A stretch of DNA of 57,023 bases, filler included, from Porpidia crustulata (lineage: Eukaryota), in assembly GCA_964255105.1 (NCBI GenBank). It is 7 parts of 7 records of this genome, joined end to end, with 100 filler letters (N's around TTAATTAATTAA, not from the genome) between each part and the next. Parts side by side here need not be neighbours in the genome. Positions count along the whole stretch, not along the records: positions 24,500 to 32,559 come from CAXUWE010001182.1; 6 more parts are not named here. One strand, 5' to 3'. The notes under the pieces were generated by a model, which worked only from the letters and a program-made list of their open reading frames with translations, was not told the origin of the DNA and did no database searches. This document shows, one piece after another, positions 24,500 through 32,559 of this stretch. The number at the start of each line of letters is the position of its first letter. Position 1 is the stretch's first letter. Made by a program: the position numbers and the translations under genes.

Positions 24500-24557
24500 G
24501 ATATGGCGAGTCCGTGAGGTGGAGAACACCGCGGAAGTGTAAATCCAACACTTCGCA

Positions 24558-24670
24558 TACACGTACTTACCCCTCAAATGGTCAACCCGCCTAGGGTTAG
24601 ATGTAATCTTGATTTTAGGGTTAGGTTGACCATTTAAGTGGTGTGACCATTTGAGGGGTATATACGTGTA
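24558..24670. mobile_element. Putative MITE (~109 bp) with ~25-bp terminal inverted repeats and TA flanks
   Basis: Left end TA-CACGTACTTACCCCTCAAATGGTCA; right end TGACCATTTGAGGGGTATATACGTG-TA (2 mismatches). Confidence 0.65.
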
Positions 24671-25359
24671 GCCTAGCCTGCCTGAATTATCTAGCGTTAT
24701 CCCTGGGTGATGTATCTAATTTTCCTTCTTCAACCGCGAGATGGCTTTTTCTCCCTCCTATGTTGGAATTACATAGGGGCATGGGACGCTAGCGGAATTT
24801 TCATCTTCCGTCCCCCCTAGATAATTTATACTCCTAATAACAATAAAAACGATAATCTTCATAGTCAATGCCGGGCATCTGTAACTTGATATTTCAACAG
24901 AGCAACGGCTCTTTGAATTTGGTTTTCTGGACTTTACTCTGGGTGGAAGGGGAGGGGAATTAGTAAGACAAGACGTATGATGTCCAGAAGGGTGACCGCT
25001 AAGAGCCCAGCCAGTCATGTGAGCTCCCATGTTGGTATGTTCTTTCATTATCAGCTGTCTAAAGTATCGTGTTACTGGTTATTCGAAAGTATCTGCTGTC
25101 TATCAAGTATGATAACCATAATTGCACATTTTACAATCTCGTTGGGCGTGTCTTCATCAGAATGACTTGCTTTTAACCCCTGAAATGTCGCGGTTCACTA
25201 TGTCTATATAGAGGACAGTGCATTCTGGAGCTCGTCAGTCGTAGCCTACTGATTTCTCACCGCTGTTATTGCTCCAATTAACCAAAGGATCAGCTTTGAC
25301 ATACCGGTCCCGAGCTTTTGCGTACCACAGGCCAATTCCACTTAGGCCACGCGAAGCCC

Positions 25360-27331
25360 TCAATCTCTCTTCAGACCAACTCTGCCACATTTCCGAAGGC
25401 CGAACGCGCCAATGCAGCAAGTAAGAACCATCCACCCGAAGCACGTCCAGAATGAAGCTCGATAACCTATCATCAATGCCTCGGGCGAAACCTTGTCGGC
25501 AAAGCTCGACCCTTGTGTCACAGAGTCTGCGATAACACCAGCAAGCGCCAGCCCGATTGCTTGACCGAATTGAGCAACGGTATTGAAAACCGCACCCGCT
25601 AGCGCTTGTGTTTGGCCCGAAAACACCTCGGAAACTAGGATGATGCCGACTGTGAACAGCACTAGTAGTACTTATTAATTCGTGGATGACTCCAACTTTT
25701 ACTCCTCAGTGGAATATAGCTCAACTCACCATCAGGACTTAGAGGTTCTAGCAGCTGCGCTGGAAATGCTGCGTACCAATATGGCCAGCGTGGATTAATG
25801 AGCGCCATCAACATGGGAGCTACAGCCCCGAAAACAGATGATATCACGACCAGATAAATTGCCGGAATCCTATGGACAATGAAACCCGTAAGCAGATTCA
25901 AGATCGCTGCCAGGATCATACTCGGCAGGAAGCGAATCGATGCTTGAAGCGCTGAGAGTTTCTGCACATTTTGCCAACTATTCGACTAGTTAGCATAATT
26001 GTTATCGTCCAATGGATACTGGAAGAGAGGTTACAAGAGACTACAGAATAGTTCCATGGTCTGCATGACGGCATATGACAGAAGAACCATGAGACAGATA
26101 CTGGTGAAGGGTAATTTTCTCCATAGCGAGTTGGGAATCAGTGCAGGCTTCTGCAATCGCTCTTGTCTGCTGACCCATAGAACAAAGGCTGGAATAAGTG
26201 CCACACTGATTGTCAGTAAAGCAATGACGGAAGCGTGTCTGATGTATGATGTATTGGTCGAGAGAATGCTGTCCTATCTTTCTTAGCGAGCTGTTTCCTG
26301 TCACTGAAAAGAAAGAATGTCAGGAGCTTACACCAGCACGTAAGCAAGAAGAGCCAGGCAGGTAGTCGCTATAATCGTCCCCACCCAATCAATTTGTGTT
26401 CTTAGTCGCTTCAGACTCGGTGGTTGCATCAACGAGTCTGCCGGTAAACTCCAAATGCCAAATAGGAGGAGCATCATAATTCCTCCAGCACACATATACC
26501 ACCCAGTCCTCCAGCCAATTGTATCAACAAAGACACCGCCAAGCACGAGACCGGCAGAGAATCCAAGCGGTTGCCCGAGGCCCATACAGGCAAAGCCGAC
26601 ATTGCGTCTCTTGCCGCTGGACACTGCATTGGTTAGTATACCCACGGAAGTTGGCAGGCAGAGCGCTAGTGCAATTCCTTGCATGGCACGAAACATGATC
26701 AGTTCGATACCAGTTCGTGCTAGACCGCATGCAAGCACAAAACAGGCCAGCAGGAAGCAACCGATGAGATATACGGGGCGACTTCCAACGACGTCAGCGA
26801 CGGAGCCGGCCAGTAGGAGGCATGAACTACTAGTCAAGCTGCGAAAGGATAAGCAGGGGCTTAGTCAACGGGCGATATCGACAGAAAATACTGACCCGTA
26901 GACGGAAAGTGGCCTGCGAAAATGGTTAGCAAAGGCTATGCTACGGTATACACCGCTTGGTCGATGATAGTCCTAGCATTCGATCACAGATATGGGCAGA
27001 CGCTGTAGCAAAGCCAAATCCTACTCAGGCGGGTGGATAATACTTACCAGTAGGTCAATTGCGGTTGAATTGCCAAGTCAGCTGCCATGCGTGGGATCGC
27101 TACATTGATGAGACCAGTAGTAATACTAGTCATGAAAGTCAAGGCAGTCAGTTGTATGATGACAATAACGGCTTGGCTTTTCCGAACTTCTGGCGAAGGC
27201 GCACCCCTTGTTTGCATATTTGTCTCTGGTCCTCTGTCCTTGGGTTCTTCTACAACTTGGCCCAGACTCGCAATTGAGGTGCTTGCGGGTTGTAGAACCT
27301 CAAGCTCGGTTCCTGTGGCGGCGTGGGACAT
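25360..27331 (-). CDS. MFS drug:H+ antiporter (DHA2/Atr1-like), multi-exon
   Basis: GSVADVVGSR, RAMQGIALALCLP, GLGQPLGFSAGLVLGG, GWRTGWY, DWVG, QALAGAVFNTVAQFG, GYRASFW; many TM helices. Confidence 0.88.
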
Positions 27332-27545
27332 GATGCGCTCCGTCGCTCACTTACCACGATTTCTTGGGTCAAATTTGTTGATGACTTCCGAGAGAGAACA
27401 GTATTGCTGACAGTTGAGAATGGCAAGTGGTAAGGCTCAAGTCAAATTCCAGGACTACTCTTGAGATTATCATTAGGTACGAGGCTTCCCGTAATGCTGG
27501 TGCATAAGGGTACGGCAGTCCATATCGTGCAAAGGGAAATAACTA

Positions 27546-27608
27546 ATTTTTTGATTTTCGATTTTTGATTTTTGATTTTTGATATTTGATTTTCATTTTA
27601 AGATTTCG
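27546..27608. repeat. Degenerate (TTTTTGA)n minisatellite
   Basis: About 8 imperfect TTTTTGA-like units upstream of the MFS gene. Confidence 0.7.
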
Positions 27609-28892
27609 GCTTCCGAAATCAACAGTCCCCAAATCTACCTCCCTTCAAATGCCACCCCCAAATGCAGTAACCTGGAAAGCGGAGGTCTGTCTACACTAAG
27701 TCTGCAGTCCGTGGCCGGAAGAAGCTTATTTGTACGACGTGAGAACATATAGGTCATGGCGAAAGGATTGCCTTACTTGCACAGAGAACGCTCTAGACAA
27801 CATCACTATATCGGTTTAGCTACAGCAGGATTGGGTCTTGATCGACCATCTCAAACCAAAAGTATCGCATACAGTGTACTCTAAGATGAGTCTCCAATGT
27901 CTGGGATACCGAGGCCCTTACACAATGCGATTTGTATAAAAACCTGAGCCTCAGGATTGCAGAATACGTGCATATCTTGTTTATCTAGTGGGATGCCTGA
28001 TCGACAGGAAAAATCTGGTCTCTCAACTTCCCGTCAATGTGAGCCTGGAGGGGTTCGCGCCGAGAGATGCGCAGCTGACTGCATCATTAGTGAAAGTATC
28101 TAGACCGGCCCTATCGGTTGTCGTCCCCCGTTACTCACCCATCACAATAAATCTTTACGGATCATGATCGTGGCTACAGCTTTACGTTATTCCGGAGCAT
28201 GCGATCTCGCCACTATGCTTCCCGCCTACATTTTGTTCAGCTAGACGCGGCTTTTGTAAAGCATTAGTGGATTCTGGACAGGGTTCACAGTGTTTGAACC
28301 GGGGTAGTTCTACATTGCCCCTACACCGTCCCTTTACATTGACTCGACACCGCTCATTTGTACTGCCCCAGCTTCCCTCTATCGAAGCATTGCATGCAGA
28401 TATTCCGAAAGCCTCTTATTATTTTAAGGCAAACTTTGCACCAAGCAGCAGTCCCCTCACCCACTATAGATGTGAAAAGTGCCTTAGAGCGCAAAGAACT
28501 CCCGCTATTTAAGCGATTGAGCTACTCTATTGGGTGGGTAAGTGGGACAAGAGCGGAGTCCACCTATACGACCATACCCTATATCCTATGGGATGAAGGG
28601 GGGAAGCACGACCGAAGAGCATCATCTTATTCACATAGATCACTGATGCTCACAGCTAATAGACTTCTTGCTTGATGGTAACGCAAATACGTGTCTCGCG
28701 AATCAGGGATGGACAAACGTCCTAACTATACACTTTCGAGGGCTGTTTCATATCAAGAATGATATCATGGGCCTAAGCTTTCAAAACATCATCAAGATCG
28801 AGCGAATAATATTGTTCCTGAGAGCCACGCCTTCATGCAACCCATTCAAACGTCGATCAGAGCAATATCTTCTGAATCCTCCTCATTTCCCC

Positions 28893-29477
28893 TTATTTCC
28901 CCTCGTTAGCCGCCTTTCGCTCTGCGAGGAGATCCTCAATATATCCGTTGAGCCAATACCGACTTAGCAACGCTTCATCCATATCTTCTGCCCCCTTGAT
29001 TCTTCCACAGCATTTACCTTCCCCAGCGCCACACCAACAGTCAAACGGTTGTGCTAGCGTCCAATCGGTGCTTGGATAAAAGAAACACAACCTATCGCCC
29101 TTGCGCAATGGACGATCTCTTCTAACCCAAATCTCGAACTTATCCATGTGCCACTCCAGAGTAGGATCGCATGAATGGTTGGTAAAGTGGATGTTGCTAT
29201 TGAGCTCGACGTGCAGATCGCGCCCAGCTTGGGTAGTACTGTAGCTCTGGGGCCACTGCTGATTGATGCCCGTAAGGCGTGCGAAGAGCGCTCCGGGTGG
29301 CAAGTCAACCTTAGACTCTGCCCAGGAGCGATAAGAGCCACCGGTCGTCCTCACCTTAAGGAGGCGGTCCCAGTCTGGATTTACCCACGCTGGGAGAAGA
29401 TTGGGACGTTCTGCGGCGGGCGCATTTTCATTTTGGTTGCTGTCAATTATACTCTGCGTGTTGGCGTCGAGCGGCAT
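28893..29477 (-). CDS. Small stand-alone SET + post-SET domain methyltransferase (194 aa, intronless)
   Basis: SET motif FTNHSCDPT, GDRLCFFYPST (ELxFDY equivalent), post-SET FDCWCG...CCG. Confidence 0.85.
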   Translation of the reverse strand: MPLDANTQSIIDSNQNENAPAAERPNLLPAWVNPDWDRLLKVRTTGGSYRSWAESKVDLPPGALFARLTGINQQWPQSYSTTQAGRDLHVELNSNIHFTNHSCDPTLEWHMDKFEIWVRRDRPLRKGDRLCFFYPSTDWTLAQPFDCWCGAGEGKCCGRIKGAEDMDEALLSRYWLNGYIEDLLAERKAANEGK

Positions 29478-29921
29478 TATGGTTGGAAGTTTTGCTAAAG
29501 AATTTGTGGTGTTGTGCAGAATGGCAATCCAGCTAGATATGTCGGATGCTCAAAGAAAATCGAGAGCGGTGGTGACTACTCTTTTATCTCTCTTTGGATA
29601 TCACACGTCAACCATCCCTTGCTATGTTCGAACCAAATCTTCCTGAAGAAGAAGGTATCACAACATGGAACTCACTCATAACCTATCAGATGTTCTTCCG
29701 GGTATGTCATCCTGCACGAACGATGTTACTCAACTGGTCGGGCATGGTCCGAGACCCCAGGGATGTCTGCTGACTTTCTTCGAACGTACGACAATTTCAG
29801 GCAAACTTTCGTGCAACCGTATCTCAAATTTCTTTGAATCGCGTGGAACTAAAACATGGTAACATTGAATCAAAGAGTTGGTTACCACCGGCTGGGCCAC
29901 ACATATTCTTGCGTGTCGTGG

Positions 29922-30335
29922 AACCTATAGCTGACTGCGTTGATGTAAGTAGATCAACGAATCGATTGCCTGCTTTTTGAGTCAGACGAAAAAGCTTGAT
30001 TCAAAGAGAAAGCGATCTATAGGATACTCCTAATGATCTATAGCTGAATGCATTGATGTAAGTAGGTCAATGAATTCGTTGCCTCATTCTTGGATCAAAC
30101 AAGAAAGCTTGATTCAAAAGAGAAAACGATCTATAGGACGCTCCTCATAACCTGTAGCTGACTGCATTAAGGTTAGTCGACCAATGAACCGGTTGCCTGA
30201 TTTTTGAATCAAACGAGAAAGCGGTCAACAGGACGCTCCTCATAACCTATAGCTGACTGCGTTGATGCAGCTCGATCAATGAATCTATTATCAGACTCTC
30301 GATTCGAACGAGAAAGCGGTCTACAGGACTTTCCT
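29922..30335. repeat. Degenerate tandem repeat, 4 copies of a ~95-113 bp unit
   Basis: Each unit starts with an ACCTATAGCTGACTGC-like sequence and ends with a GAGAAAGCG...AGGACGCTCCT-like sequence; copies 1-2 carry an extra internal segment. Confidence 0.85.
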
Positions 30336-30630
30336 CGCAGCCTCAACCTGTGTGTGACAGTACCTTCGATACTGCAGATGCGTATAAACCATCTAATGGC
30401 TGAATGATTTGATTTGTTATGAGGCTACGTCACGGAAAAATTGGCCTCGGAGATGTTTCATTGACCATACTGGAGGGATATTAGCCAGGACAGCAGATAG
30501 TACCATGTTCGATTATACATTTCAGAAACCATTGAAAGCCTTAGATATTCGATGGACTGGTCCTCTTCATCAAGAAGCAATTCCTATTTCGAAGGGAACA
30601 GATTGATCGTTTAGCATTAATTCATAAATC

Positions 30631-32272
30631 ATGGCCTTGACCCGTCGATTTGCATTTCCTTTACATCCCCATGAGTATGCCTCGGATGCTGTACCTAGTC
30701 TTCAGGATTGGCAGCAACTATGGGATGCCTGGCACCTGGTCACTACTGGGATGATTCCACGGGAGAAGTTAATGGAGAAGCCTATTCCATTACGCAATCC
30801 GCTACTCTTCTACTTAGGCCATATCCCAACCTTGTAAGAAAGATCCTTTGTTCAGCATATACGGCTGACAATTCAAAGTGAAGATATTCACCTCACTCGG
30901 GCCACCAATAGCAAGCCCACAGAGCCTAGTTACTATGCTAGGATCTTCGAGAGGGGAATTGATCCAGATGTTGATAATCCTGAAATTTGTCATGATCACA
31001 GTGAGCTTCCTCAAGAATGGCCGAGAGTGGAAGAAATTCTGTTGTTCAGAGAGAAGATTTGTCAAAGGATCAAGTCTATGTACGAAAGCGGGACGGCGTG
31101 GTCGGATCCTGAAATTGGGAGAGCTCTGTGGATTGGTTTTGAGCATGAGGGTGGGATTACATCGTCCGTTACAGACTGATTTTCGTTGATTTGTTGAGCA
31201 CATACTTAGGCTTGCACCTGGAGACCTTCCTCTACATGCTTCTACAAAGCGACTTTGTGATGCCACCTCCAGAGCCCGTACCAAACTTCGAAATTCTAGC
31301 CAAAAAAGCTGCTGCGGAAAGGGTCGAAAACAAATGGTTCACGATTCCAGCGAGTCGAATTGTTCACGGCTTCTCTGAATCCAATAGCGACTCGATGCAT
31401 CGTCGTTTCTTTGTCTGGGACAACGAGACGCCGCGCTATCAGGTACACGTGGCAGCATTTGAAGCCCAAGCTCGTCCTGTTAATAACGGCGAATACGCTA
31501 AATATCTTAGTGTGACAGGTAGAGAAATACCAGTCCTCTGGACGTCAAAGACAACTCAAGTATCAGCCGAGGAGGTCGACGAATCTGCTAAGCTACGCGT
31601 CTTTCTCGACAATAACTTTATCAAGACGGTATATGGACCTATTTCGCTCCACATCGCCTCAGACTGGCCAGTGATGGCCTCGTACAACGAGCTTGCAGGC
31701 TACGCTAGGTGGGTAGGATGCCGCATCCCAACTCTCAGTGAGGTTCGAAGCATATACGATATCGTAGAGACGCAGAAGCGTGTCAAGGACGGTTCGGAAA
31801 GAGCGAACCCGGATTCGATGGCGCCTGAGACGGACGAGAATTTCGTCAACCTGACGGACTGTAACATCGGACTGCAGCATTTCCATCCGATGCCTGTGAC
31901 GCAGAATGGAAATCGATTGTCCGGGCTGGGTGACATGGGCGGCGCGTGGGAATGGACCAGCTCTTTGTTGGAGCCGTACGAGGGTTTCCGGCCAATGGAC
32001 ATCTATCCCGGATACACCGGTATCGTCTCCCGAACATTACGCACGTTGAGCCTCTGCTAAACGCGCGTCAGCCGATTTCATGGACGGGAAGCACAACGTC
32101 GTGCTCGGAGGATCGTGGGCCACACATCCTCGTATCACTGGACGCAGAAGCTTGTAAGTTTTGAAAAACATCTCCACGTGCAAGATAAATTGCCAACTAC
32201 CAAAGCATCAACTGGTGGCAGCTGAACTATAGGTATCCCTGGGTTACGGCCAGGCTCGTTCGCGATGTATAG
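30631..32272 (+). CDS. Egt1/EgtB-like non-heme-iron sulfoxide synthase (DinB-like + FGE-sulfatase fold) lacking the N-terminal histidine methyltransferase domain; 5 exons
   Basis: Spliced product: KPIPLRNPLLFYLGHIPTF, IFERGIDPDVDNPEICHDHSE, FEHEGLHLETFLYMLLQS (HxxxHxE), WDNE, DMGGAWEWTSS, YPGYTADFMDGKHNVVLGGSWATHPRI, ...ARLVRDV*. In-frame TAA at 30625 lies just upstream of the ATG. Confidence 0.9.
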
Positions 32273-32334
32273 TTTGCTCAAGGCTCTTGCGAAAGGCTTG
32301 ATTTGTCGGGAAAGGTTTGATCGGAAAACCGACC

Positions 32335-32380
32335 GAGATGAAACGGAACGAGATGAAACGGAACGAGATGAGATGAGAGA
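32335..32380. repeat. Short tandem repeat of GAGATGAAACGGAAC decaying into (GAGAT)n
   Basis: Directly visible 15-bp duplication downstream of the EgtB-like gene. Confidence 0.6.
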
Positions 32381-32559
32381 ATAGATTGTCGAAGAAAAAA
32401 CAAGATTCATTGTCAAGATTCATCGTTCTCTCTCCCTCCCTTACTTCCTCATTTTCTTTCTCTCTCTCCATCTCCCATCCCACATCACATCTCCTCACTC
32501 CCTATCTACCATCTCCTCTTCTAGCCGCTCGCCCCCCGCCCCCCCCCTCCTTTCACATC

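Follow-up and report, generated by a model that had tools for sequence, protein, structure and literature searches.

A 57,023-nucleotide stretch of Porpidia crustulata DNA (assembly GCA_964255105.1; hereafter the window) encodes an Egt1-type sulfoxide synthase that lacks a methyltransferase domain and, head to head with it, a small SET-domain protein related to the bacterial enzyme BurB. A gene for a transporter of the major facilitator superfamily (MFS) lies beside the pair. We put the chance that this locus is a conserved fungal module for an exported, methylated thio-histidine-type metabolite at about one in two. The finding defines a fungal clade of methyltransferase-less synthases with a signature at four positions and gives it an unexpected conserved partner, a BurB-like SET protein. 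Sulfoxide synthases of this family, SET enzymes and MFS exporters were known before; new are the synthase clade with its signature and the partnership with a SET protein.

The window consists of seven contigs of about 8 kb each with runs of N between them, and the locus is on the fourth (CAXUWE010001182.1, positions 24500-32559, 8,060 bp). Genes were called from stop-to-stop open reading frames (ORFs) and Pfam matches, with manual splicing. Three genes are recognisable on this contig, those for the MFS transporter and the SET protein on the minus strand and that for the synthase on the plus strand (Table 1). As the original prediction made from the window had held, there are no others: none of the four remaining ORFs of at least 100 amino acids matches Pfam. 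The bounds of the locus are its outer stop codons, the MFS stop at 25360-25362 and the synthase stop ending at 32272.

That prediction had also described the synthase gene as intact, divergent from the SET gene and without the EgtD-type methyltransferase of fungal Egt1, and all three points hold. Four GT-AG introns of 45-59 nt leave an unbroken reading frame of 477 codons, and no EgtD-type domain was found on the contig by tblastn with the N-terminal domains of three canonical Egt1 proteins (E<1). The same search ruled out a hidden EgtD exon upstream of the synthase. Canonical Egt1 proteins align to the window only from about residue 326-360 on, which is where the start codon at 30631 falls. 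The FGE-sulfatase domain matches exon 3, the largest, at 6e-18. DinB_2 remains below threshold on the short exons of the window, and full-length relatives carry both domains; one of them, a 478-residue protein (P0066) with DinB_2 (PF12867) and FGE-sulfatase (PF03781), is 68% identical to the window synthase over its full length of 477 residues.

The nearest relatives of the synthase are likewise stand-alone proteins. They have 470-535 residues and are 54-68% identical to it over the full length, compared with 48-53% for canonical Egt1, whose members have 800-880 residues and combine PF10017 with PF12867 and PF03781. In a FastTree phylogeny of 121 rows the window synthase and 10 stand-alone proteins form a group (support 100, stem 0.34), and the remaining 10 short rows fall inside canonical Egt1 and seem to be truncated gene models. 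An IQ-TREE phylogeny of 76 rows separates 48 clade rows from 28 canonical rows with a Shimodaira-Hasegawa-like approximate likelihood ratio test (SH-aLRT) value of 100. The methyltransferase-less synthases are a separate fungal clade and not truncated gene models. A search with a clade profile brought in about 45 further members among the matches listed. The clade includes many Fusarium proteins and others from Aspergillus, Paecilomyces, Penicillium polonicum, Aplosporella, Apiospora, Ophiocordyceps, Ilyonectria, Pyricularia and lichen fungi. In the IQ-TREE phylogeny the proteins of Fusarium, like those of Aspergillus, are split over two or three sub-clades, which suggests ancient duplication or transfer in the history of the clade.

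Four conserved positions distinguish the clade, which reads E-L-M-W where canonical Egt1 reads (L/A/F)-M-F-Y. The clade-type signature was present in 44 of 195 aligned rows, with all four letters in 25, and none of the 44 has an EgtD domain. Two of the four positions are on or beside substrate positions of the composite motif described in PMC11030361. The signature is only a hint, drawn from the alignment, that the substrate or the site of attack may be altered.

Among solved structures the best match to the clade profile is EgtB-IV (8VIH, E 2e-31), with OvoA (8KHQ) at 4e-22. The NCBIfam equivalog models fit the clade far less well than their cut-offs require, with a score of 144 on ovoA_Nterm (cut-off 400) and of 122 on EgtB (cut-off 360). 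The histidines of FYLGH and EHEGLH and the tyrosine of DIYPGY align to EgtB-IV 8VIH, and we take these residues to be the iron ligands and the catalytic tyrosine. The arginine of LRN and the aspartate of GIDPD, which also align to EgtB-IV, are presumably thiol-binding positions. The iron-site histidines and the DIYPGY tyrosine are conserved over the 195 aligned rows, truncated or gapped gene models excepted. Composite motifs underlie the assignment of the iron ligands (PMC11030361). At the betaine site the window sequence FINWWQ places NWW opposite NWF of 8VIH, an asparagine followed by a bulky aromatic residue. In the same account, hercynine acceptors (EgtB-I, EgtB-II, EgtB-IV and SenA) have Asn with Trp or Phe and histidine acceptors (OvoA and OvsA) have Ala (PMC11030361). 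Because it has the Asn-Trp pair, the window synthase looks like a betaine acceptor of the hercynine type, a prediction for which the rule, unvalidated for fungal enzymes, is a lead on the substrate and no proof. Fungal enzymes were explicitly excluded from the recent motif-based mining (PMC11030361).

The SET protein scores 24.3 bits against the Pfam SET model, for which the cut-off is 22.4. It has the hallmarks of the fold, an NHSC motif, a conserved tyrosine and a post-SET CxCx6C. Searches yielded 64 homologues, mostly of 180-205 residues, from Pezizomycotina and, as two distant sequences, from chytrids. Within this family H101, S102, C103, C147, C149 and C156 are invariant and Y134 is nearly so. 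No NCBIfam family matched the protein, and a search of the ESM Atlas returned generic fungal SET clusters only. One homologue, a 200-residue protein of Ophiocordyceps camponoti-floridani (P0021), is publicly named a galactose-proton symport, evidently wrongly; the name may hint at a neighbouring transporter gene.

A profile of the SET family searched against the PDB placed BurB (9L4T) first with an E of 3.7e-15 (59 bits), and the next entry, the best histone methyltransferase, followed at 4.3e-6 (30 bits). With a predicted structure as the query, Foldseek ranked BurB chains first to third (E 3.9e-8; template modelling score, normalised to the target, 0.66-0.70); 109 PDB chains were matched at E<=0.001, and all matches listed were SET-domain enzymes. 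Of the proteins with solved structures, BurB is the closest to the SET protein, ahead of the histone methyltransferases. BurB is described as a 172-residue SET enzyme that converts free L-methionine to S-methylmethionine (PMC12542666). As nearest relative by both sequence and fold, it is a closer precedent for SET action on a small molecule than SETD3, on which the original prediction had drawn for that idea. BurB is reported to hold methionine through main-chain atoms, with the alpha-amino and carboxylate groups anchored away from S-adenosylmethionine (SAM) and the side-chain end methylated (PMC12542666). By analogy, the likeness suggests that the target of the fungal SET protein may be a side-chain atom rather than the alpha-nitrogen.

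Linkage in other genomes, whose absence the original prediction had named as refuting it, was found at two levels. A metagenome scan with the SET alignment gave 21 loci. Six of these (L001-L006) represent a single sequence, present in six assemblies, whose SET protein shares 76% identity with that of the window. There the SET and synthase genes lie head to head about 960 bp apart at the DNA level, and MFS, synthase and SET genes fall within 6 kb. Five of the six have the whole MFS orthologue, 47-86% identical per exon, and the sixth, a short contig, has part of it. Unlike in the window, the synthase gene lies between the SET and MFS genes. As the MFS gene has moved and the SET/synthase pair is intact, the pair survived a rearrangement. 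Around the L002 locus are a kinase gene, a fragment of a DDE transposase and a second MFS gene. The fragment (DDE_1, 10799-11257 of L002) directly adjoins the SET gene, which, with the change of side of the MFS gene, suggests a transposon-associated rearrangement. No synthase was within reach in the other 15 loci (L007-L021; SET-like, 26-46% identity), which are short or probably not orthologous.

Among named fungi, the locus tags or accessions of the SET gene and a clade synthase gene run consecutively in about seven species from four genera and two classes (Table 1). The two were neighbours in every case that could be checked. The SET-adjacent synthases fall into three separate sub-clades of the IQ-TREE phylogeny and their partner SET proteins into three sub-clades of the SET tree. 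In Pyricularia oryzae the next gene after the pair, MGG_00021, codes for a Zn2Cys6 factor (PMC4192604).

The pairing could also be non-metabolic, with the SET protein a lysine methyltransferase of histones or other proteins, the synthase a redundant enzyme for ergothioneine or one with an unrelated function, and the two genes held together by a shared bidirectional promoter or retained by chance. We consider this quite improbable. Pfam sees nothing but a generic SET domain, histone methyltransferases match the SET profile at E 4e-6 to 1e-5, and SET homologues occur in species without a clade synthase among the matches listed. The P. oryzae gene of the pair, MGG_00019, has moreover been handled as a chromatin-type SET gene that is repressed by Gcn5 (PMC6247014). 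Set against this, BurB outscores any histone enzyme by nine orders of magnitude, the 194-residue protein has no reader or targeting domains, and the adjacency has been kept over two named classes and through the rearrangement that moved the MFS gene.

Several observations weigh against a module for an exported thio-histidine. The relation to BurB is distant, at 24-25% identity, and the AlphaFold (AF2) model of the SET protein is of moderate quality (predicted local distance difference test 71.5). As BurB binds methionine through main-chain atoms, the substrate specificity of the SET protein is not readable from its sequence. Neither an Egt2-like lyase nor another biosynthetic gene was found on the contig or within 10 kb in L002. 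The MFS gene is linked to the pair in only two genomes, and the adjacency in named genomes is an order of tags or accessions, not of DNA. The two families also occur apart. No SET protein among the 64 matches belongs to the genus or species of the clade synthases from Fusarium (about 20 rows), Paecilomyces, Penicillium polonicum, A. cristatus or A. wentii. Conversely, for 23 of the 27 named SET representatives there is no clade synthase of the same species among the matches listed (120); these include Xylaria, Nemania, Monosporascus, Xylographa, Talaromyces and the two chytrids. Such absences are weak negatives because both searches were bounded by shared words and list length, though they suggest that the pair is not obligatory. 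Other partners of the synthase exist as well. In A. nomiae and A. pseudonomiae the partner is a DAO-type FAD oxidoreductase, and one merged or fused A. pseudonomiae model (P0438) joins it to a clade synthase. A second merged or fused model, from Fusarium sp. NRRL 66182 (P0346), joins a Methyltransf_2 O-methyltransferase to a clade synthase. As these two models indicate, the enzymes encoded next to the clade synthase vary from lineage to lineage. The Fusarium O-methyltransferase looks like an enzyme of ordinary fungal secondary metabolism (best matches MpaG' and LepI). As it comes from one merged model, we gave it little weight as a candidate partner.

Building on the gene structures, the clade, the motifs, the neighbourhood and the relation to BurB, we infer the substrates, the order of steps and export as follows. 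The core of the module would be the head-to-head SET/synthase pair, with the linked MFS exporter beside it. The synthase would be a non-heme-iron enzyme of the type III (Egt1) kind that has lost its EgtD domain, and would most likely use O2 to attach cysteine sulfur to the imidazole ring of hercynine or a similar betaine derived from histidine. The SET protein may be a BurB-like, SAM-dependent methyltransferase of a free amino acid or a pathway intermediate, not of histones. A C-S lyase, if needed, could be the housekeeping Egt2, and the MFS protein would export the product. This would be a methylated thio-histidine-type metabolite related to ergothioneine and ovothiol; since four conserved positions of the pocket region differ from canonical Egt1, it is probably not identical to ergothioneine.

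Should the module be real, the role of its SET protein divides several ways. Methylation of the side chain, at a ring nitrogen or at sulfur, is a tentative choice; N-alpha-trimethylation in place of EgtD is possible though somewhat doubtful; and what remains falls to some other role. Within the module explanation we slightly prefer side-chain tailoring.

Taken as an explanation of its own, a SET protein that trimethylates the alpha-nitrogen of histidine in place of the lost EgtD would make the locus a split pathway for exported ergothioneine or another hercynine-derived compound, independent of canonical Egt1. SET enzymes classically build trimethylammonium groups. The synthase lacks an EgtD domain and keeps the Asn-Trp pair of hercynine acceptors, and hence would need a trimethylammonium substrate. 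A methyltransferase gene adjoins it in all neighbourhoods checked, in four named genera and, at the DNA level, in two lineages, and BurB offers a small SET enzyme that accepts a free amino acid. The geometry of BurB speaks against this chemistry, since the alpha-amino and carboxylate groups are the end kept away from SAM. SETD3 and the lysine-methylating SET enzymes also act on side-chain atoms. In the many genera with clade synthases and no SET match, the substrate would have to come from elsewhere. In Aplosporella prunicola a clade synthase coexists with a canonical fused Egt1 (P0338, P0369), so hercynine is probably available there. We regard this explanation as unlikely.

Alternatively, the betaine would come from canonical Egt1 and the SET protein would tailor the side chain, either at an imidazole ring nitrogen, as in ovothiol, or at sulfur to give an S-methyl thio-imidazole or a sulfonium. 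That BurB, the nearest solved relative, is itself a side-chain S-methyltransferase of a free amino acid argues for this, and an accessory role suits both the patchy co-occurrence of SET protein and synthase and the differing neighbours of the synthase in other lineages. Yet no residue-level feature points to a substrate, and if this sulfoxide already comes from canonical Egt1, a second synthase is hard to explain, barring a different position of sulfur attachment. As a separate explanation this too seems rather unlikely. Of the cluster originally predicted, the linkage and the stand-alone synthase are borne out, and the idea of a SET protein acting on a small molecule gains support. Membership of the MFS gene beyond two genomes and N-alpha-trimethylation by the SET protein stay conjectural, with methylation of a ring nitrogen or of sulfur at least equally probable.

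The thio- and seleno-imidazoles are a small metabolite family of ergothioneine, ovothiol, selenoneine and ovoselenol, and to our knowledge each new synthase subfamily so far has led to new chemistry. A bolder form of the module explanation, which we hold possible but do not expect, is that a first eukaryotic SET enzyme acting on a free amino acid or thio-imidazole works with the new synthase clade, with its pocket unlike that of canonical Egt1, to make a previously unknown exported fungal thio-histidine metabolite rather than ergothioneine. Its possible products are hercynine derivatives methylated at a ring nitrogen or at sulfur, or thiolated at position 5. The pathway would then have a patchy distribution in Pezizomycotina, among them lichen formers and pathogens of insects and of plants. 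Should the product of the pair be a new exported thiol, small-molecule chemistry by SET enzymes would extend from one bacterial case to fungi, two genes would be the target for heterologous expression, and many fungal annotations as "SET domain", "C-type lectin" or "DUF323" would need relabelling. We found no description of a sulfoxide synthase with a SET partner, or of a stand-alone fungal Egt1 clade, in the open-access full-text literature. For MGG_00018-21 the same literature gave no functional account, and for FGSG_01683 and its neighbours no papers.

Table 1. Features of the Porpidia crustulata locus (positions in the window) and SET/synthase gene pairs in named fungi (locus tags or accessions).
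Feature	Position or identifiers	Strand	Basis or remark
MFS transporter gene, ~534 aa	25360..27331	-	Pfam MFS_1 on exon ORFs; enumeration of GT-AG junctions
MFS exons, five-exon model	27331-27048, 26859-26332, 26268-26035, 25977-25730, 25670-25360 (stop included)	-	
SET-domain protein gene, single exon, 194 aa plus stop, BurB-like	28893..29477	-	Pfam SET
Divergent intergenic region, 1,153 bp between SET and synthase start codons	29478..30630	.	
Tandem repeat array, units of 95-114 bp, ~4 copies	29922..30336	.	repeat family D1; TRF periods 114 and 95
Methyltransferase-less Egt1-type sulfoxide synthase gene, 477 aa	30631..32272	+	splice model, FGE-sulfatase match
Synthase exons	30631-30833, 30879-31150, 31210-32019, 32072-32153, 32206-32272 (stop included)	+	
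Adjacent SET/synthase, Pyricularia sp. CBS 133598	PspLS_12170/12171		
Adjacent SET/synthase, P. oryzae 70-15	MGG_00019/00020		also in four further strains
Adjacent SET/synthase, Ophiocordyceps camponoti-floridani	KAF4595174/5		
Adjacent SET/synthase, O. camponoti-rufipedis	CDD80_5262/5263		
Adjacent SET/synthase, Aspergillus alliaceus and A. burnettii	KAB8228285/6, ETB97_005203/02		
SET/synthase two apart, Aspergillus bertholletiae			
Adjacent SET/synthase, Apiospora hydei	PG997_010094/93		

The region between the SET and synthase genes is presumed to be a shared promoter. Each unit of its tandem array holds a short palindrome of the GTTGAT..ATCAAC type, and no tandem array is present in the corresponding intergenic region of L002. 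Just downstream of the synthase stop, at about 32300-32385, is a short run of imperfect 15-nt repeats that in one frame reads as an RDETE repeat. The MFS_1 model matches three exon ORFs of the transporter gene, the largest at 62.9 bits, above the cut-off of 33.4, and the other two below it. A simple hydropathy scan of the 534-residue model finds 13-14 hydrophobic segments; the length and the number of segments are compatible with DHA2, the 14-spanner drug:H+ antiporters, in a model whose first splice junction is uncertain. Near the start of the contig and downstream of the MFS gene, an inverted repeat at 24558-24670 has 36-nt arms, 83% complementary and 41 nt apart. The other six contigs (1-24399 and 32660-57023) carry ordinary fungal genes, those for a P450, sugar transporters, an NPC1-like sterol transporter, a COQ5 methyltransferase, a protein kinase, eRF1, an amino-acid transporter, a prephenate dehydratase, a protein O-mannosyltransferase and a fungal rhodopsin-domain protein; no relatives of Egt1 or Egt2 were found on these six.

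Of the known systems, canonical fungal Egt1, the type III EgtB with an EgtD-type methyltransferase fused to the synthase, is one of the closest to the window synthase. The two have a common DinB_2 and FGE-sulfatase fold with 48-53% identity over the synthase part, and they share the iron-ligand histidines, the catalytic tyrosine, the Asn-Trp site, the arginine of LRN and the aspartate of GIDPD. They differ in that the window gene lacks PF10017, belongs to its own clade (support 100) and is paired with a SET gene. The sequence differences are TFEDIH in the window clade for TF(L/A/F)DIH in Egt1, HEGLH for HEAMH, ADFM for ADFF, NWW for NWY and PLRNPL for KLRNAC. Like the window synthase, EgtB-IV (8VIH) and OvoA (8KHQ) stand alone with respect to EgtD, and EgtB-IV has the hercynine-type Asn-Trp motif. 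Both are bacterial, however, and OvoA has Ala in place of Trp and a C-terminal class-I methyltransferase of its own.

BurB of Burkholderia thailandensis (9L4T/9L4V) resembles the window SET protein in being a small single-domain SET enzyme (172 against 194 residues), in the alignment of HSC, the tyrosine and the post-SET CxC...C, and as its best fold match; it also has a biosynthetic context and a free amino acid as substrate. BurB is bacterial and the window protein fungal, identity is 24-25%, and by count on the profile alignment several SAM contacts of BurB are replaced, H72 by S, R133 by Q and H138 by W. The gene partners differ too: those of BurB are presumably genes for dimethylsulfoniopropionate (DMSP) and malleicyprol, whereas those of the window SET gene code for a sulfoxide synthase and an MFS protein. 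In bacterial thio- and seleno-imidazole clusters such as ash, a sulfoxide synthase is described as accompanied by a tailoring enzyme and by an MFS transporter (PMC13674229), a published precedent for the module explanation. The kingdom, the synthase subfamily and the tailoring enzyme, an ATP-grasp or class-I methyltransferase there and a SET protein here, are different, but in both an accessory enzyme and an MFS protein accompany a non-heme-iron sulfoxide synthase in one small cluster.

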